A DNA stretch of 17,376 bases, taken from the IMG/VR virus record IMGVR_UViG_2703718846_000005, positions 1-17,376 of that record, one strand, 5' to 3'. Origin of the DNA: a virus. Its lineage: Duplodnaviria; Heunggongvirae; Uroviricota; Caudoviricetes. The notes beneath the pieces were generated by a model. It was not told the origin of the DNA. It ran no database searches and saw only the letters and a list, made by a program, of their open reading frames with translations. The translations under genes and the position numbers were made by a program. This document shows, one piece after another, positions 2,290-17,376 of the stretch (position 1 is the first letter of the stretch; each line of letters starts with the position of its first letter).

Positions 2290-2356
2290 GCCCCAGTTAA
2301 CATTACGCGTCCTGCAAGACGCTTAACATTAATCTGAGGCTCAATCTATGAACGGC
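2290..2356 (-). ncRNA. sok: Sok-like antisense RNA (type I antitoxin) with its promoter
   Basis: Minus-strand promoter TTGCCT-17 nt-TAACCT (plus coords 2391-2386 and 2368-2363), matching my recollection of the R1 sok promoter TTGCGC-17-TATCCT; transcript would be antisense to the mok start region. Ends are approximate. Confidence 0.45.
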
Positions 2357-2560
2357 AAATCTAGGTTAGCCTCTTACGTGCCGAAAGGCAAGGAGAAGCA
2401 GGCTATGAAGCAGCAAAAGGCGATGTTAATCGCCCTGATCGTCATCTGTTTAACCGTCATTGTGACGGCACTGGTAACGAGGAAAGACCTCTGCGAGGTA
2501 CGAATCCGAACCGGCCAGACGGAGGTCGCTGTCTTCACAGCTTACGAACCTGAGGAGTAA
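2348..2560 (+). CDS. mok-like upstream reading frame, in frame with hok (70 codons)
   Basis: ATG 2348 opens a frame that contains the hok ATG 2405 and shares its stop; position matches mok of hok/sok loci. Confidence 0.4.
   Translation: MNGKSRLASYVPKGKEKQAMKQQKAMLIALIVICLTVIVTALVTRKDLCEVRIRTGQTEVAVFTAYEPEE
2405..2560 (+). CDS. hok: Hok/Gef-family type I toxin (51 aa)
   Basis: MKQQKAMLIALIVICLTVIVTALVTRKDLCEVRIRTGQTEVAVFTAYEPEE: single TM helix plus conserved C-terminal Hok motif; I recognise it as HokD/RelF-like; GGAGAAG SD upstream. Confidence 0.85.
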   Translation: MKQQKAMLIALIVICLTVIVTALVTRKDLCEVRIRTGQTEVAVFTAYEPEE

Positions 2561-2973: not shown

Positions 2974-3459
2974 ATGGCTGAGATTGTTGAAGGAGTGCAT
3001 TACCTTACGGTTGATGATCTTGTTGAAATCAATCGTTCCCTAATTGAATTACAGACGCCAGATGAGCCCGTTGGTGTTCTGAGTCCAGATAACTTAAGTT
3101 CTTCTCAGGCCCGTCCCAGCATGGTTCGATGGTATGAACAGACTAATGACATGTTTGTACTGGCATCGGTATTGATTGAAAGTCTGATTCAGAATCATCC
3201 GTTTGCTAATGCGAACAAACGAACAGCTATGATGGCTGGTTACGTCTTCTTGTTGTTGAATGGCTATGAGTTAACAGCACCAGGCGATGAAATCGTGGAA
3301 ATGGCAGAGGGACTGGCCTGCAAAACCTATACTCGAGAAGATCTCGAGAACTGGTTGTGTTATTGGTCTCGCGCGTATGACAGCCGGGAATTATGTAAAA
3401 CAGGCGCAACTATTGTTTTGTATGAAACTATCAAGCTTAAAATAGAACAGCAAAACTAA
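2974..3459 (+). CDS. doc: Doc (death-on-curing) family toxin, Fic fold
   Basis: Contains HPFANANKRTA, matching the Doc motif HxFx(D/N)(A/G)NKR; size about 160 aa; start could be TTG 2965 or ATG 2974. Confidence 0.8.
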   Translation: MAEIVEGVHYLTVDDLVEINRSLIELQTPDEPVGVLSPDNLSSSQARPSMVRWYEQTNDMFVLASVLIESLIQNHPFANANKRTAMMAGYVFLLLNGYELTAPGDEIVEMAEGLACKTYTREDLENWLCYWSRAYDSRELCKTGATIVLYETIKLKIEQQN

Positions 3460-6336: not shown

Positions 6337-7080
6337 ATGAATGAAGCCTGTTCTGTTGTTTTTGTTCATTCCCCGTTTGTTGTGCTCTTTGAAGGAAAAG
6401 AGCTCTCTCTTGAAAGTGGTAGTGCACTTCTTGTCAGGGGGGGAGCTGGATCGTTATTGCCCTTTTCGGAATGTTTTCGGCGAATAAGTCTCAGTGAATC
6501 GACAATTAGCCGTTACCTGTTGTGTGGAGACGAAAAACAGGATGTAGTTTTAGTCCGGCAAATACCACGATATCTTTGCGTGAGTTTTCCCAAGGCAGAA
6601 TTGATGGGCATCCTGATTGATTATCTTTGTGAGGAAAAGATTCATACGGACAATTTAGCGGAAATGCTTTCCTTTTCGTGTCTGGCGTTTTTCTCATCAG
6701 AGAAAATGTTTTCGTCGTTTCTGACCGCGTGTATTAGCAATATTAGTGACAGGCTTAGTGCATTGTTTCGTACGGACATTGCAGCAAACTGGACTCTGAG
6801 AGATGTGTCTTCGCGGTTATGTATCAGTGAAAGTTTGTTAAAAAAAAGACTGAAAGAAGAAGGCACCTGTTTCAGTGAGTTGTTGCTTACAGAGAGAATG
6901 AGAATGGCAGCAATGCTGTTGAATCAATCTCGTTGCGCCATCAACAGAATCGCTGCTCAGTGCGGCTATAATTTTACATCTTATTTTATCAGCGTATTCA
7001 GGAGTTATTTTGGTGTTACACCGGCAGGTTACAGGATGGCTGCATTCAATGAGATGAGTTTAAGTGTTACTCAAGAATAA
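6337..7080 (+). CDS. AraC/XylS-family transcriptional regulator (AppY/EnvY/GadX-like), AT-rich moron
   Basis: C-terminal dual HTH (..LLKKRLKEEGTCFSELLLTERMRMAAMLL..IAAQCGYNFTSYFISVFRSYFGVTPAGYR); N-terminus MNEACSVVFV resembles AppY-type regulators; visibly AT-richer than flanks. Confidence 0.85.
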   Translation: MNEACSVVFVHSPFVVLFEGKELSLESGSALLVRGGAGSLLPFSECFRRISLSESTISRYLLCGDEKQDVVLVRQIPRYLCVSFPKAELMGILIDYLCEEKIHTDNLAEMLSFSCLAFFSSEKMFSSFLTACISNISDRLSALFRTDIAANWTLRDVSSRLCISESLLKKRLKEEGTCFSELLLTERMRMAAMLLNQSRCAINRIAAQCGYNFTSYFISVFRSYFGVTPAGYRMAAFNEMSLSVTQE

Positions 7081-7264: not shown

Positions 7265-7690
7265 ATGTTTGGTATTTTCAAAAAGAAAACCCGTAAGGCT
7301 ATTACTGAAGTGAAGAAAATGGAGAACCGCGACGCAGTGGAGGCGACCGTCTGGGGCGCGTATTCCATTGCATACGCTGACGACACCTGTGACGCGAAAG
7401 AAATTGCGGTACTGGAGAAAACCATTGCAGCACTTCCTGCCTTTGCGCCGTTCTCCGGTGAGATTGCACAAATGAGTGCAAATATCCGCGCCCGTTATGA
7501 AGCATCACCGCGTTCTGCCAATGCTGAAGCTCTTCGTCAGCTGGCTGATGTTGCAGGTACTGATGATGCAGTTAATGTGCTGTGCCTGTGTCTCGATATT
7601 GCTGACCAGGACGGTATTGGTCCGGATGAAGAAGCACAGCTCAAGAAAATTGCGCAGGCGCTGCAGTTGCCACTGGAGCAGTATCTGTGA
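7265..7690 (+). CDS. TerB-like (tellurite-resistance TerB family) protein
   Basis: ATG 7265 with AAAGGA SD; two TerB-like helical repeats (AYSIAYADDTCDAKEIAVLEKTI and VLCLCLDIADQDGIGPDEEAQLKKIAQAL) resembling TerB as I remember it. Confidence 0.65.
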   Translation: MFGIFKKKTRKAITEVKKMENRDAVEATVWGAYSIAYADDTCDAKEIAVLEKTIAALPAFAPFSGEIAQMSANIRARYEASPRSANAEALRQLADVAGTDDAVNVLCLCLDIADQDGIGPDEEAQLKKIAQALQLPLEQYL

Positions 7691-7845
7691 AAACTGCGCG
7701 CCTTGTGCTGGCTGCCATCCTGTTGTTTCTGGTAGTGGCGGTTGATTTCACCGGGCGCCTGATGTCGGTGCTGGCTGATGGCGTGCTGGTGGTGATGGTA
7801 GTGGTCGTGCTCCGGCCTTTATTCCGGAACAAAAACAACAGCTGA
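7687..7845 (+). CDS. Small membrane peptide (52 aa) translationally coupled to the TerB-like gene
   Basis: GTG overlaps TerB-like stop (GTGA); product VKTARLVLAAILLFLVVAVDFTGRLMSVLADGVLVVMVVVVLRPLFRNKNNS is predicted TM; terminator follows. Confidence 0.4.
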   Translation: MKTARLVLAAILLFLVVAVDFTGRLMSVLADGVLVVMVVVVLRPLFRNKNNS

Positions 7846-7852
7846 TTATTTG

Positions 7853-7882
7853 AGCGGGCATTGAAAGCCCGCTGCATTTTTA
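7853..7882 (+). terminator. Terminator of the TerB-like unit, overlapping the stop of the convergent minus-strand gene
   Basis: AGCGGGC-attgaa-GCCCGCT hairpin followed by TTTTTA; the minus-strand side lacks a U-run. Confidence 0.55.
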
Positions 7883-8560
7883 TTGCTGCTGTTCCTTAAT
7901 GCGTTCCGGTAGCACAAATGCCACTTCAAGGAACAGGCGGAGAAACGCCACAAACTCTTTTGCCTGTTCACTACTGGCCTCGAGTTCGTGCACAGCCTCA
8001 TTGCCTTCCATACGGATTCGGTGAGCCCAGTTTCTCATTGATTCCGTCAGTATGCCGTCCTGCCGTGCCAGTTCAATGCGTGACAGCAGATTGCCTTTTT
8101 CGTACCCCAGGGCACGGAGGGCAACCTCGAGGACGCTACGGCAGCCAACAATGATACGCGGGGCGGTTCTGCCGGACCGAACATCCTCCTGCAACTCAGT
8201 GAAGACTGCGCGAATTTTTTCGGGATAGTGGGGGGAGTCATCGGGCAGCCTGAGTTCAGGATAGATTTTGATGCTTCCCTCAAGTGGAGCATTCAGCACC
8301 CAGGCTTTGTTGTTGATGGCTTTTTTCATGTCCACCAGTTCACTGACTGAACATTCGAATGCGATCATTAATGGGTTGTTACATTCTGTGCAAAAGTCTG
8401 TTGAGTATGCTTTTGCTGATGTTATTTCAGAGGTGCGCGGCTGTTGCACGTAAAGCTTGTTTTCTGTAGCCGGGCGCCTGCTGTGGTACTGGGTGACCTC
8501 ATTCAGAGAAATATGAACCTGATGAAGGCAGTACGGGCATCTAATTTTCAGGGAGTACAT
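7880..8560 (-). CDS. Zn-ribbon plus DUF4145-domain protein (226 aa), candidate defence/abortive-infection-type protein
   Basis: N-terminal CPYC...CTEC zinc ribbon; C-terminus ..RSVLEVALRALG..LLSRIELARQDGILTESMRNWAHRIRMEGNEAVHE..AKEFVAFLRLFLEVAF matches the DUF4145 pattern from memory; start at minus ATG 8560-8558 with AAGAGG SD. Confidence 0.65.
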   Translation of the reverse strand: MYSLKIRCPYCLHQVHISLNEVTQYHSRRPATENKLYVQQPRTSEITSAKAYSTDFCTECNNPLMIAFECSVSELVDMKKAINNKAWVLNAPLEGSIKIYPELRLPDDSPHYPEKIRAVFTELQEDVRSGRTAPRIIVGCRSVLEVALRALGYEKGNLLSRIELARQDGILTESMRNWAHRIRMEGNEAVHELEASSEQAKEFVAFLRLFLEVAFVLPERIKEQQQ

Positions 8561-11732: not shown

Positions 11733-12242
11733 GTGGCTACGCAGACTGAAGTTGCCAGGCATTTGAGTCTGACCGATCGCCAGCTTCGCAGATTGCAGAA
11801 ATTGCCGGGTGCCCCGGTCTCGAATAAACGGGGGCATCATGACTTGGATGCCTGGCGTGATTTTTACATATCGTATCTGAGGAGAAGTAAAAATGATGTG
11901 TCTGATGGTGATAGCGAAGAAGACTATGAAGAAAAATTACTTATCGCCAGATGGAAATTGACTGAAGAACAGGCAATAGCACAGCAATTAAAAAATCAGG
12001 TAACTGAAGGCAGACTTATTGATTCAGGGTTCTGCGTTTTCGCCCTCAGCAAACTGGCGATGGCATTGTCCAGTACGCTTGATTCCATTCCTTTATCCAT
12101 GCAGCGACAGTTCCCGGATTTAACCCCGCGTCATATTGATTATCTGAAAACCCTTATCGCAAAGGGAGCGAATCAGTGTGCGCGGGCAGGGGATAAATTG
12201 CCGGAGTTACTCGATGAATATATCCGAACAACAGTTGAATAA
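11733..12242 (+). CDS. Terminase small subunit (lambda Nu1-like)
   Basis: GTG start with GAGGTGAG SD; ..FCVFALSKLAMALSSTLDSIPLSMQRQFPDLTPRHIDYLK.. closely parallels lambda gpNu1; overlaps the large-subunit start as in lambda. Confidence 0.9.
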   Translation: MATQTEVARHLSLTDRQLRRLQKLPGAPVSNKRGHHDLDAWRDFYISYLRRSKNDVSDGDSEEDYEEKLLIARWKLTEEQAIAQQLKNQVTEGRLIDSGFCVFALSKLAMALSSTLDSIPLSMQRQFPDLTPRHIDYLKTLIAKGANQCARAGDKLPELLDEYIRTTVE

Positions 12243-14574
12243 TATGATGATCGCCGTCACAACCGCATTACAGCCACTAATAAGGGCATTGCCGGTCACG
12301 CCGGTTGAATGGGCTGATCAAAATTATTATCTGCCTAAAGAATCGTCATACGGTGAAGGAGAGTGGAAAACCCTGCCGTTTCAGGTCGCCATTATGAACA
12401 GCATGGGGCACGACAGGATCCGCACTGTTAATCTGATTAAATCGGCGCGTGTGGGTTACACCAAAATGCTGCTGGGCGTGGTCGGGTATTTTATTGAGCA
12501 TAAATCCCGTAACAGCCTGCTCTTCCAGCCGACAGATTCCGCAGCTGAAGATTTTATGAAAGCGCATGTGGAAGCAACGCTCCGGGATGTCCCCAGCCTT
12601 AAAGCGTTATCGCCATGGCTGGGCAGAAAACATCGGGACAACACACTCACCCTGAAGCGTTTTTCCTCCGGCGTGGGGTTCTGGTGCCTGGGGGGGGCCG
12701 CTGCTAAAAACTACCGTGAAAAATCTGTGGATGTGGTCTGCTATGACGAACTCTCCTCGTTTGAACCGGATGTGGAAAAAGAAGGCTCGCCGACGCTGCT
12801 TGGCGATAAACGTATCGAAGGCTCGGTATGGCCTAAATCCATACGCGGCTCAACGCCAAAAATTAAAGGCTCCTGCCAGATTGAGAAAGCGGCGAATGAA
12901 TCTGCGCATTTCATGCGGTTTTATGTCCCTTGCCCTCATTGCGGGGAGGCCCAGTATCTGAAGTTTGGCGATGATGCGACGCCGTTTGGCCTGAAATGGG
13001 AGAAGGGTAAACCCGAAACGGTGTATTACCTGTGTGAACATAATGGCTGTGTGATCCGCCAGTCGGAACTTGACCAGACCGACGGATGCTGGATTTGTGA
13101 CAATACCGGGATGTGGACGCGTGACGGCCTGACATTTTACAGTGCCGGTGATGAGGAAATCCCGCCACCGCGCTCAATTTCGTACCACATCTGGACGGCA
13201 TACAGCCCGTTCACCACCTGGGTACAGATTGTTTATGACTGGCTCGATGCACTGAAGGATCCGAATGGCGTCAAGACGTTCATTAACACCACGCTCGGGG
13301 AGCCCTATGAAGAGGCCGTGGCAGAAAAACTGAGCTTTGAGTTGTTGCTGGAAAAAGTCTGCCACTATGGCGCGCAGGTTCCCCTGCGGGTGGTTTACCT
13401 GACCGCAGGGATAGACTCCCAGAAAGATCGCTATGAAATTTATGTTTGGGGCTGGGCTCCCGGCGAAGAAGCCTTTCTGATTGACAAGCAAATTATCATG
13501 GGGCGACCGGAGGACGAGGACACCCTTAAACGTGTTGATGCGGTGATCCGGAAAAAATACCGCCATGCTGACGGTACTGAAATTTCCATTTCCCGCGTCT
13601 GCTGGGATACCGGTGGTATCGACCAGGACATTGTGTATCAGCGATCCAGAAAACACGGCACTTTTTTTGTGCTTCCCATAAAAGGGGCATCGGTGTATGG
13701 CAAGCCGGTGATCACCATGCCCAAAAAGCGCAACCAGCGTGGTGTGTTTTTGTGTGAGGTGGGCTCCGATACCGTCAAGGAAATGCTGTACGCCCGTTTT
13801 GCCCTGCCGGTGGTTTCTGCCAGTGAAGCAGCTCCGTATACCTTCCGTTTTCCGGATAACCCGGACATTTTTTCGGAAGAAGAGGCGCGTCAAATCGTAG
13901 CGGAAGAACTGGTGGAAAAGGTGGTTAACGGCAGGGTGAAACTGCTGTGGGATAAAAAAGGGCGACGCAACGAAGCCCTCGACTGCCTGGTATATGCTTA
14001 TGCCGCCCTGCGCGTTTCGGTACAGCGGTGGCAACTGGACCTTGAAGCACTGGCGATGGCACGAAAAGATGAGCAGGATGAGGATGATATGAGCATGGAA
14101 GAGATCGCGGCTGCACTGAGTGGAGGATATTCCAGTGCCAGGGCATCCGCCAATGAGTCGTGGCGGTATTTTATGGGAAAACGAAAATTTGTGGCCAGTC
14201 GCCTGGCGTCACAGATGTTTGCCTGCTGGCTGGAGGAAGCCCTTATTCGTGGTGTGATCCGTCCGCCGAAATCCCGTTTCTCATTCTGGGAGGCTCGTTC
14301 CGGGTGGTGCCGTGCCGAGTGGATTGGTGCCGGTCGTATGGCGATTGATGGCCTTAAGGAAGTGCAGGAAGCGGTGATGCGCATTGAAGGCGGCCTGAGT
14401 ACATACGAGAAAGAGCTGGCCCTGATGGGGGATGACTATCAGGAGATTTTCCGCCAGCAGCTACGGGAAACTCAGGAGCGACAGGCTGCCGGTCTTCCGC
14501 GTCCGGTCTGGATAAAGGACGCGTTTCAACAGCAGATCCGACAGACAACGGGAGAAAAAGGCGATGCGCTGTAA
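12214..14574 (+). CDS. Terminase large subunit (lambda gpA-like) fused in frame to the C-terminal part of the portal protein (gpB-like)
   Basis: N-terminus MNISEQQLNN..VEWADQNYYLPKES..GDKRIEGSVWPKSIRGSTPK.. follows lambda gpA for about 637 aa; from about 14128 the frame continues as ..YSSARASANESWRYFMGKRKFVASR..MAIDGLKEVQEAVMRIEGGLSTYEKE.., which matches the lambda portal C-terminus (from memory). Confidence 0.85.
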   Translation: MNISEQQLNNMMIAVTTALQPLIRALPVTPVEWADQNYYLPKESSYGEGEWKTLPFQVAIMNSMGHDRIRTVNLIKSARVGYTKMLLGVVGYFIEHKSRNSLLFQPTDSAAEDFMKAHVEATLRDVPSLKALSPWLGRKHRDNTLTLKRFSSGVGFWCLGGAAAKNYREKSVDVVCYDELSSFEPDVEKEGSPTLLGDKRIEGSVWPKSIRGSTPKIKGSCQIEKAANESAHFMRFYVPCPHCGEAQYLKFGDDATPFGLKWEKGKPETVYYLCEHNGCVIRQSELDQTDGCWICDNTGMWTRDGLTFYSAGDEEIPPPRSISYHIWTAYSPFTTWVQIVYDWLDALKDPNGVKTFINTTLGEPYEEAVAEKLSFELLLEKVCHYGAQVPLRVVYLTAGIDSQKDRYEIYVWGWAPGEEAFLIDKQIIMGRPEDEDTLKRVDAVIRKKYRHADGTEISISRVCWDTGGIDQDIVYQRSRKHGTFFVLPIKGASVYGKPVITMPKKRNQRGVFLCEVGSDTVKEMLYARFALPVVSASEAAPYTFRFPDNPDIFSEEEARQIVAEELVEKVVNGRVKLLWDKKGRRNEALDCLVYAYAALRVSVQRWQLDLEALAMARKDEQDEDDMSMEEIAAALSGGYSSARASANESWRYFMGKRKFVASRLASQMFACWLEEALIRGVIRPPKSRFSFWEARSGWCRAEWIGAGRMAIDGLKEVQEAVMRIEGGLSTYEKELALMGDDYQEIFRQQLRETQERQAAGLPRPVWIKDAFQQQIRQTTGEKGDAL

Positions 14575-15523
14575 TTTATCACATATTGCCGCGATGGCAT
14601 TTAATGAGCCGCTTTTACTGGAACCCGCCTATGCGCGGGTTTTCTTTTGCGCACTGGGTAAGGAGATGGGGGCGGGCAGCCTTGCCGTTCCGCAGCAGGC
14701 CGTTCAGCTTGATGCCGATGGTATGCAGCTGGCGGTTACCGATTATATGACTGGTGGTCCGCGTCCGGTAAAGAGTTACCAGGTGAAAAATGGTATTGCC
14801 ATTCTGCCGGTGAGCGGCACGTTGGTACATAAAATGGGTACCCTGCGGCCATATTCCGGTATGACCGGTTATGACGGTCTGACTGCCCGTCTTAAGTCAG
14901 CGGTGAACGACCCGGATGTACGCGGCATTTTACTGGATATCGACAGTCCGGGTGGTCAGGCTGCCGGGGCGTTTGACTGTGCTGACATGATTTACCGTCT
15001 GCGGGAACAGAAGCCCGTGTGGGCGCTGTGTAATGACATGGCCTGTTCAGCCGCCATGTTGCTGGCGGCGGCCTGTACGCGTCGGCTGGTCACGCAGACG
15101 GCAAAAATTGGTTCGATTGGTGTGATGATGGCGCACACCAGTTACGAGAAACAACTGGCACAGGAAGGCGTGGATATCACGCTGATTTACTCCGGGCAGC
15201 ACAAGGTTGACGGCAACAGTATTCAGGCGTTGCCGACAGGTGTGCGTGCGGATTTTCAGCGCCGTATTGATGAGGCCCGCCGGATGTTTGTCGACAAGGT
15301 GGCGCTTTATACGGGGCTGAGTTCAGAGGCGGTGATGAATACCGAGGCTGCCGTTTATGACGGTCAGGCAGGCATTGATACAGGCCTGGCTGATCAACTG
15401 ATTAATGCTGCAGATGCCGTTGATGTACCATATTATTCTGAAAGCCAGACAGAATACATCCGCAGTGGTCATGAGAACGGTGGCGACAGTGGTGACAGGT
15501 CCGGCAGGAGAATATGCTTTTGA
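14564..15523 (+). CDS. Head maturation protease/scaffold gpC-like (S49 peptidase family), C-terminally truncated at a deletion junction
   Basis: ..HIAAMAFNEPLLLEPAYARVFFCAL..ILPVSGTLV..SGMTGYDGL..GVMMAHTSYEKQLAQEGVDITLIYSGQHKVDGN.. parallels lambda gpC to about aa 290, then diverges into 30 unrelated codons. Confidence 0.75.
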   Translation: MRCNLSHIAAMAFNEPLLLEPAYARVFFCALGKEMGAGSLAVPQQAVQLDADGMQLAVTDYMTGGPRPVKSYQVKNGIAILPVSGTLVHKMGTLRPYSGMTGYDGLTARLKSAVNDPDVRGILLDIDSPGGQAAGAFDCADMIYRLREQKPVWALCNDMACSAAMLLAAACTRRLVTQTAKIGSIGVMMAHTSYEKQLAQEGVDITLIYSGQHKVDGNSIQALPTGVRADFQRRIDEARRMFVDKVALYTGLSSEAVMNTEAAVYDGQAGIDTGLADQLINAADAVDVPYYSESQTEYIRSGHENGGDSGDRSGRRICF

Positions 15524-16793
15524 AGCTCAGACCGGAAAATATGACGTTTATCTTCGGTCGTGTATTGAAAGGGAATACTGTGTCGGTGATATTTCGGTTT
15601 ACCACGATTCAACGCCCGGCACGCTGAATGATTTTCTGACAGCCATCGATGAAGGTGACCTCAAACCCGACGTGGTGAAACGTTTTGAGGAAATGGTGGC
15701 GCAGGCGCAGCAGAGCGCGGAAACGGCAACAGAAAGCGAACGACAGGCAGGGCAACATGCAGACGCTGCCGCCCGGGTAAAAGAAGATGTAAAAAAACTG
15801 GTGGAAGGTGTTCAGCAGAACGCCGACGCGGTTGCGGAGGGTAAACAACAGGCCGAAACTCTGGTCTCACAGGTTGAGGATACCGCCGCAGAGGTCAGGC
15901 AGGATGCTGAAGCCGCGAAAAAGGCCGCATCTGATGCAGAGCATGTCAGGGAGGATATTGACACTGCGTTATCTGCGACACTGAAAACGGCGAATCGCCT
16001 GTCAGAGCTGGCTGATGAAGGTGAAGAGGCTCAGCAGGAATCCCGTGATAATCTTGGACTGAAAAGCGCAGCCACAATGACGCCACAGAGCGACATTCGT
16101 GACCGGACTGAAGGCCGTCTGGCGACACCTGGCGCATTTGGTTTTGGGCATATTTTTTTGCCCGCAGAGCGTATCCGTTTTAACACAGAGGATGATTTTC
16201 TGTCCTGGGTAAGGAATGCGACGCCGGGTGAATATTTTGTTGAGGGTGACAGTAAAATCATATCCGGAGGTGTGTTGTTTAACGGGATGGTCCGCATCCG
16301 GTGGGTTGAGGCACGCAATAATCCACCGGAGCCGCGATATACAGCAAAGGCCATTATTTTCTACGGTATTAATGGCGATGTTTATTACAACCGCTACTGG
16401 ACAACAGGTAATGGTTATCTGACTGGCTGGGAAAATCTGAAGATGACCTCACAGGACATTATCTCTCTTCTGTCCGGTATTGCTCCCGGTACCACGGACG
16501 GCTGGTACGGTGCAGGCAGTCTTGTACTGGCGGCTTATAACGGTAAGGGAGACGCAGACACCGACCGCCGGATAAAACGCGGTTACAGCTATCCGGGGTC
16601 ACGCCTGAGCGCGGTTGAATTTATGTGTCACGGCACGACCGGTAGCGGGGTTGGATATAACGGCAGCGTTTCCGTATATGTGCGGGGTTCTGGTGGTGGT
16701 ATGCCGGGGTCATATCGGGCACTGTCAGGTGACGGGCTCGGGTCTGCCGGGTCAGCCAGTGTCATGATTGGTTTGTTCATACGTATTGCGTAG
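15426..16793 (+). pseudogene. Side tail fibre protein (Stf-like), lacking native N-terminus and start; joined out of frame to gpC remnant
   Basis: ..ILKARQNTSAVV..DISVYHDSTPGTLNDFLTAIDEGD.. matches lambda Stf from about residue 20; Ala/Glu/Gln-rich coiled-coil then C-terminal domain; only fortuitous upstream ATGs (15405) lie in gpC-derived sequence. Confidence 0.65.
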
Positions 16794-16800
16794 GTGTTTT

Positions 16801-17376
16801 ATGGAAATAAAACGCATCGAAAATGCGCGTTATCTTGAAAATGGCGCGATTGACTGTGGGGTGTTGTTTGATGGCATGGATGAACCGGTTCCGTATACGG
16901 CAACTGCCACGGATACAGCAGAGACAGGGCAGCGAGTCTGGCAGGAACTGCAAAGCGGCAAGTGGGGAGAAATAACGCCGTTCACCGTCACGTCAGAGAT
17001 GCTGGAAGCAGCAAAAGCAGCCAAACGCCGGGAAATTGAAGCATGGCGTACAGAGCAGGAGGCGCAGCCATTCATTTTTGAATGGAACGGTCATAGCTGG
17101 AACGGGGGACCGGATTCGATGGCCCGTCTTTATCCGGTGGCGATGGCGTCGAAATCCGACACAGCACGGGACGTCATGACGTGGGGTGATGCGGAAAATC
17201 AGCAGGTAAAGTTGTCAATGCAACAACTGGATGAGTTGCTTACTGCAATGGTTCAGGCGCAGGTTGATCGCAATGATGAAATTTATCGCCGCCAGCGGGA
17301 AATGAAAGATGCGTTAAATGCACTGGATGGTTTGAACTCGATCAGAAAACTAGTTATTAGCCCAGAAAATTTTTGA
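16801..17376 (+). CDS. Tail fibre assembly protein (Tfa-like chaperone)
   Basis: ATG 16801 just after stf stop; size and position typical of Tfa; ends at window edge with TGA. Confidence 0.7.
   Translation: MEIKRIENARYLENGAIDCGVLFDGMDEPVPYTATATDTAETGQRVWQELQSGKWGEITPFTVTSEMLEAAKAAKRREIEAWRTEQEAQPFIFEWNGHSWNGGPDSMARLYPVAMASKSDTARDVMTWGDAENQQVKLSMQQLDELLTAMVQAQVDRNDEIYRRQREMKDALNALDGLNSIRKLVISPENF

Follow-up and report, generated by a model that had tools for sequence, protein, structure and literature searches.

An apparently recent deletion scar joins a prohead protease gene to a truncated tail fibre gene in an Escherichia coli prophage at serT

How does the gene of a head protease come to lie directly against that of a tail fibre, and do the fibre genes beyond it still have a use? 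The question is raised by a stretch of 17,376 nucleotides, here called the window, in which a lambda gpC-like protease gene gives way to an Stf-type tail fibre gene in another reading frame. The initial annotation read this place as the second of two deletions, joining the two genes out of frame. Both parts of that reading held, and we assign a probability of about 0.93 to the explanation as a whole: the joint was left by a recent deletion, confined to one strain, of about 14.6 kb within a mosaic temperate prophage.

An exact-protein look-up placed the window in contig LOOR01000027.1 of the E. coli draft assembly GCA_001575625.1, with base 1 of the window at base 235 of the record. Directly 3' of the last prophage gene lies the tRNA-Ser(tga) gene serT, followed by hyaABCDEF-appCBA. 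As is to be expected of a cryptic prophage, the element adjoins a recognisable attachment site (serT, upstream of hyaA), has lost essential morphogenesis genes (19 are absent, and those for the protease, fibre, portal and gpW are incomplete or gone) and has undeleted counterparts, with collinear flanks in nine assemblies and flank identities of up to 100% on both sides. It is a mosaic temperate prophage: the early and lysis genes are lambdoid, the packaging and head genes are of lambda type, and the contractile tail is of P2 type. Several accessory genes are carried in addition (Table 1). In the relatives L016, L019 and L020, the place downstream of Q that the AraC-type gene takes in the window is occupied by an N6/N4 DNA methyltransferase gene; the genes for the TerB-like, DUF3927 and DUF4145 proteins are common to the window and these three.

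Table 1. Positions of the genes, gene remnants and joints discussed here, numbered from the first base of the window.
Feature	Position	Strand	Description
hok/gef	2348-2560		Accessory gene, early/Q-proximal regions
Fic-domain protein	2974-3459		Accessory gene, early/Q-proximal regions
AraC-type regulator	6337-7080		Accessory gene, downstream of Q
TerB-like protein	7265-7690		Accessory gene
DUF3927	7687-7845		Accessory gene
DUF4145	7880-8368	-	Accessory gene
TerL-portal chimera	12214..14574	+	In frame, 786 aa; product of deletion 1
Deletion joint 1	14128..14129	.	1,337-bp deletion at TA; gpW and portal codons 1-359 removed
S49 prohead protease/scaffold gene (gpC-like), 5' part	14564..15427	+	Codons 1-288 of 538
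Protease-derived ATG (gATGta)	15423..15425	+	In frame with fibre codon 20; start used in the public record (456 aa, WP_072320152.1)
Deletion joint 2	15426..15427	.	TA in both parents, 2-nt microhomology; from alignments with the intact protease and fibre genes
Out-of-frame tail of the protease ORF	15428..15523	+	Fibre DNA read out of frame for 31 codons, ending in TGA; from translations
5'-truncated Stf-type tail fibre gene	15426..16793	+	Codons 20-474 plus stop
Remaining N-terminal collar domain	~15426-15767	+	Followed by the distal, presumed receptor-binding part
DUF4376 gene	16801..17376	+	191 aa; last prophage gene before serT; PF14301, E = 6.3e-17

A megablast comparison of window positions 14400-17376 with 5,426 complete E. 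coli genomes gave matches that fall into two separate groups, divided at the place that had been reported. Matches labelled 'S49 family peptidase / portal' (identity up to 99.8%) stop at 15427, and the first position of those labelled 'Prophage tail fiber N-terminal domain / DUF4376' is 15429 (strain C5) or 15426 (PapRG-04-4). None of the 5,426 genomes has both sides of the joint in one place, and the exact 37-mer across the joint was not found in GTDB at one genome per species. The closest undeleted relatives set the limits to the base. On the protease side the sequence is identical up to 15427 (no mismatch in 1,300 nt), positions 14128-15427 being 100% identical to the intact portal-protease region of L016, L018, L020, L022 and L024, and on the fibre side it matches from 15426 onwards (0-2 mismatches in 1,368 nt). 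With the protease frame beginning at 14564 and that of the fibre in phase with 15423, the two differ by +1. The protease ORF accordingly consists of 288 native and 31 foreign codons, with its stop at 15521-15523.

The truncated protease retains its S49 domain (PF01343, residues 146-287, E = 4.8e-33) and matches profile positions 4-287 of 583 of PHROG 53, 'head maturation protease'. It is no longer a full-length gpC-like protein, as 288 of 538 codons are left and the C-terminal repeat/scaffold-like part is lost. In the intact 538-aa protease, this half contains 3.6 tandem copies of a 138-nt (46-aa) unit (L018, 15152-15652), and the whole array is gone from the window. The protease of PapRG-04-4 is 46 aa shorter, which corresponds to about one repeat unit fewer. 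The 319-aa protease chimera is on no record in an exact look-up of ~15 billion proteins, and the public record of LOOR01000027.1 gives no product for the truncated protease ORF.

The undeleted state is known from at least nine other E. coli assemblies, in which the prophage occupies the same serT-hya site and ends in an identical 191-aa DUF4376 protein. There, the P2-type tail genes are complete (I, fibre H, Tfa, sheath, tube, assembly chaperone, tape measure, U, X and D) and are followed by the gene for a 474-aa fibre and then by the DUF4376 gene. The left half of the family, retrieved through the Nu1 protein of the window, reads Nu1, TerL (638 aa), gpW, portal (507 aa), S49 protease (538 aa), decoration protein, major capsid protein, FI, an FII-like protein, three further proteins, gp25/W and J. 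Both halves lie on one contig in two assemblies, and by record coordinates the segment missing from the window measures 14,590 bp (AASHVW010000020.1) or 14,715 bp (UCWD01000024.1). Lost with it are protease codons 289-538 (250 codons), 19 whole genes and fibre codons 1-19. The lost genes are the lambda-type D, E, FI and FII together with the P2-type contractile tail (V, W, J, I, H, Tfa, sheath, tube, tape measure, U, X and D), and they include the primary fibre and the true Tfa of the prophage. All the intervening head and tail genes are absent, as the initial annotation had stated. The tail that was lost is not that of lambda: a mosaic myovirus, and not a lambda-type siphovirus, was the parent, and its head genes are of lambda type. 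A description of the parent as 'phiP27-like' was also dropped, since the annotation of phiP27 corresponds only in the lysis genes and the terminal fibre cassette. In the complete genome of PapRG-04-4, the same interval is ~25.75 kb long and includes a satellite-like insertion of ~10.6 kb. This element (L003, ~15762-26320) lies between the head-completion and baseplate genes and carries genes for an integrase, a BRO-N protein, an Icd-like protein, a RepA helicase, an SSB and a small terminase, and has major capsid and decoration protein genes of its own. The element is reminiscent of capsid-forming PICIs.

We propose that a 14.6-kb deletion joined codon 288 of the S49 protease to codon 20 of the last-but-one gene of the prophage, which encodes a second fibre, of the Stf type. 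The two parental sequences share only TA at the joint. No longer in-register repeat was found within ±150 nt of either parental breakpoint, the sole shared 10-mer being out of register at +32 and +79, and no insertion sequence (IS) end, att core or other IS or att sequence is present at the joint. The 2-bp microhomology points to illegitimate joining rather than to homologous, site-specific or IS-mediated recombination; judged from the junction itself, end joining and replication slippage are candidate routes, as is the action of a topoisomerase.

The first deletion lies 1.3 kb upstream, at 14128-14129, where the TerL stop codon has been replaced in frame by portal codon 360. The resulting chimera matches the Pfam families GpA_ATPase and GpA_nuclease, and its residues 625-766 correspond to profile positions 317-457 of TIGR01539 (portal_lambda). 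This 786-aa protein is found on one contig among ~15 billion proteins, under a public record that names it simply 'terminase'. After both deletions, the prophage is without any head-shell or tail genes. Both joints (14128-14129 and 15426-15427) fall on TA, and at each of them one parental side reads GGA|TA. No IS remnant or longer repeat was found that would account for the TA at both joints. It is a slight oddity, not expected from simple random breakage, and may be due to chance. An IS630/mariner-type origin of the two joints was considered and dropped, as there is neither an IS remnant nor a CTAG context and several extra steps would be needed.

The receptor-binding region of the fibre beyond the joint had been described as apparently intact; the fibre gene itself is not. 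In the undeleted gene, the native start with its AGGAAA Shine-Dalgarno sequence precedes the breakpoint by 57 nt; neither survives in the window. The remnant gives a strong match to PF08400 (phage_tail_N; E = 7.1e-43, 146.3 bits against a cut-off of 26.6) over profile positions 20-133 of 134, whereas the intact gene covers positions 1-133; the collar domain is therefore incomplete at its start. Residues 1-93 of the intact fibre align with the collar domain of lambda Stf (PDB 9E7M/9MGH, E = 1.2e-16), which in lambda (residues 1-91) makes up the ring by which the fibres are held on the tail (PMC12617516). The missing residues 1-19 (MSVLISGVLTDGAGLPMSG) are the most conserved stretch of this domain and include its conserved first strand.

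A genuine start with a promoter of its own, which would have marked an independent gene, was likewise not found. The calculated duplex energy at the protease-derived ATG is +0.4 kcal/mol, against -4.3 at the native fibre start and -7.4 at the protease start; this ATG and the two upstream of it (-1.5 and +0.6 kcal/mol) are essentially without anti-Shine-Dalgarno complementarity. A promoter scan gave no promoter-like site upstream of the remnant; its one weak site falls within the fibre gene (15565-15593), and shuffled sequence would be expected to give more. The native gene has no detectable promoter of its own in the scan either, and it lies 24 nt behind gene D in the tail operon. The remnant is thus a 5'-truncated fragment and not an intact independent gene. 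Having lost its own start, its ribosome-binding site and the first strand of the tail-attachment domain, it would be poorly translated and unable to serve the prophage as a fibre, although the in-frame ATG at the joint could allow some truncated fibre protein to be made; the DNA could still be a substrate for recombination. The 456-aa product from this ATG is the only ORF reading on record, on one contig among ~15 billion proteins, and WP_072320152.1 shows it as an ordinary protein with the protease-derived ATG in frame. A 462-aa ORF from the ATG at 15405 is on no record in the exact look-up. One 458-aa member of the fibre cluster (P0012) starts at fibre Met17, which may represent another truncation or just a different start call.

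The last gene of the prophage had been taken for a Tfa chaperone. Its product is a DUF4376 protein with no match to Caudo_TAP (PF02413) in Pfam and no significant BLASTP similarity to the Tfa of the prophage family itself, the true Tfa having been deleted. The chaperone role, however, is plausible: DUF4376 proteins encoded directly behind fibre genes act as chaperones in Alteromonas phages V22 and A5 (PMC7289586, PMC10579305), and the PHROGs family of the E. coli protein is labelled 'tail fiber protein'. By this analogy we regard it as a putative fibre chaperone. A single-sequence AlphaFold2 model reached a mean pLDDT of 57.9, too poor for a fold comparison, and NCBIfam has no model for either the fibre or the DUF4376 protein. 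The identical 191-aa protein was found on 40 contigs in the exact look-up. The last ~90 nt of its gene (~17217-17309) are 87-95% identical in many E. coli genomes with otherwise different genes, and this conserved 3' end may act as a right-hand anchor for cassette exchange.

The deletion appears to be very recent and private to one strain, as indicated by the lack of substitutions in its flanks and by chimeras that occur only once. Compared with the undeleted prophage of GCA_017004375.1, the window shows no differences in 1,300 nt left of the joint, in 1,368 nt of the fibre gene (0/1368 against L009) and in 576 nt of the DUF4376 gene. In the hya-app flank, 3 differences in 9.3 kb separate the strain from GCA_040338435.1. 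We propose that the fibre and DUF4376 genes survive because they lie distal to the breakpoint and because the event is too young for decay. Their intact look accordingly says nothing about selection.

It could instead be argued that the fibre and DUF4376 genes were kept because they are useful, either as a tail-less, receptor-masking fibre translated from the ATG born at the joint or as a selected donor module. The reading frame is open from 15423 to the native stop, and the DUF4376 gene is intact. The remnant also retains ~330 nt of the conserved N-domain as well as the conserved 3' end of the DUF4376 gene, so that shared homology arms lie on both sides of a variable part: the N-domain stretch (80-96% identity) occurs in 66 of the 5,426 genomes and the distal part in six. 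At least four different backbones, of prophages or phages, end in the cassette, namely the prophage family of the window, phiP27, a lambdoid prophage at ssrA (C5) and a myovirus-type prophage (GmM062), and it appears to be a typical exchangeable fibre module. There are precedents for both uses. Infecting lambda takes up stf/tfa DNA from Rac and Qin by marker rescue at ~2e-6, mainly in a Red-dependent manner (De Paepe et al. 2014, PMC3945230), and StfE2 of e14 blocks T2 adsorption (PMC12529663).

Against retention for use stands, first of all, the absence of any substitution relative to the undeleted copy, which leaves no time for selection to show, and the joint is a singleton that does not recur among the other assemblies with the prophage. 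The remnant has neither a Shine-Dalgarno sequence nor a promoter, and ribosomes translating the protease ORF would pass the ATG at 15423 in another frame and stop at 15523. As to a donor role, most of the distal 247 residues show 45% amino-acid identity or less to any sequenced phage, mostly 35-45% to the fibres of sequenced phages; the best phage match is phiP27, with 55% over the first 64 of the 247 residues only. No transfer from the remnant could be recognised, as it equals the undeleted allele and close copies of the distal part are absent from sequenced phages. Nor was there any trace of recent exchange with other fibre genes, which the initial annotation had envisaged, the fibre being 100% identical to the undeleted copy. 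The wider idea of cryptic prophages as a reservoir of fibre modules is sound but not new, being known for Rac and Qin of K-12, and the remnant itself gives no sign of it. We consider retention for use very unlikely. Also very unlikely is the specific proposal that the 456-aa anchorless fibre and the DUF4376 protein are made from read-through late transcripts and mask a receptor, or that the pair is rescued for a host-range switch; if it were true, a tail-less fibre could exclude phages that use the masked receptor, as reported for StfE2.

Among the phages that match the distal fibre part (window 16050-16790) are virulent ones, namely Av-05, the jumbo phage Goslar and E. coli phages from marmots, and this part contains no Pfam domain. 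In the ssrA lambdoid prophage of E. coli C5, the fibre/DUF4376 pair comes second, behind an Stf/Tfa pair. A terminator-like hairpin (GCCGGCGAAAGCTGGC then TTTTTT; L002, 2907-2922) stands in front of the fibre/DUF4376 pair, which suggests that the cassette can sit behind the end of the late operon.

Could the joint be an artefact, with an intact prophage misrepresented by a chimeric contig? The source is a draft in which the 78.6-kb contig begins only 234 nt before the window, and the joint is known from this one assembly. Misjoins, however, occur at shared repeats, and the two sides share 2 nt and no in-register k-mer within 150 nt. The same contig also has a second clean deletion joint 1.3 kb upstream, and the flanks are collinear, in order and orientation, with a single prophage at its normal chromosomal site. 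Accordingly, we consider an assembly error very improbable. That the compact arrangement is native to a satellite-like or otherwise distinct element, with the longer versions produced by insertion, is hardly tenable: such elements do exist in the prophage family, as the PapRG-04-4 insertion demonstrates, but the genes flanking the joints are fragments here (S49 288/538; PF08400 from position 20; TerL stop replaced by portal codon 360) and full-length in relatives and reference families, and the long form consists of complete, ordered operons.

A deletion scar of recent date is thus the reading we retain. There is little general biology to be learned from it, as it is an ordinary scar, of a well-known kind, in a freshly crippled prophage. 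Its value is that of a clean 'time-zero' example, in which an identical undeleted parent makes the breakpoints and the lost genes known to the base. It also calls for caution in annotation, a 5'-truncated fibre having been recorded as an ordinary protein.

Deletional decay of prophages, with remnants of packaging genes left beside fibre genes, is textbook knowledge from DLP12, e14, Rac and Qin. In DLP12 of K-12 (nohD-aaaD'-tfaD), packaging genes (a Nu1 homologue and a TerL remnant) abut a fibre-related gene, and the head and tail genes between them have been deleted, as in the window. DLP12, however, is old, fixed in its lineage and heavily decayed, with aaaD a pseudogene of 309 nt, whereas the window joint is a singleton with zero substitutions in its flanks. 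The positions of the joints also differ, that of DLP12 being in the terminase and that of the window in the protease gene of a parent with a contractile tail. The e14 element of K-12 likewise contains chimeric ORFs made by deletion: ymfN is a chimera of a replication protein and a terminase, and the portal remnant beeE' is joined to jayE', a remnant of a P2-type baseplate J gene. Fibre genes (stfP/tfaP/tfaE/stfE/pinE) are kept at its end, as they are in the window. Only e14 has an invertible fibre segment with the Pin recombinase, the window being without an invertase, and only e14 has a fibre chimera, StfE2, with a reported anti-T2 function (PMC12529663).

Like Rac and Qin, the window carries fibre genes in a defective prophage that are partly homologous to those of incoming phages; unlike these known donors, its cassette has a distal part without a close relative among sequenced phages. 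The DUF4376 protein is encoded immediately downstream of the fibre gene, as in Alteromonas phages V22 (gp27) and A5 (gp9). The relationship to these chaperones is distant and recognised via the Pfam domain only, and the role of the E. coli protein is predicted. With lambda Stf, the intact parental fibre shares the collar domain (residues 1-93) and the PF08400 match. In contrast to lambda Stf, the collar in the window is without residues 1-19, the parental tail is of the P2 contractile type, the distal part bears no relation to the lambda/T4 gp37-type tip, and the partner is a DUF4376 protein and not Tfa.

The same cassette is present in phiP27 (NC_003356), an Stx2e phage that is intact and inducible. 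This phage differs in its packaging and head genes, which are not of the Nu1/gpA/gpC-type set, and its tail gene order is unlike that of P2. Its genes L56 and L57 nevertheless encode the same pair of an Stf-N fibre and a DUF4376-type protein; they follow the primary fibre/Tfa pair and are the final structural genes ahead of attR, with 75% nucleotide identity to the window over 61% of the region.
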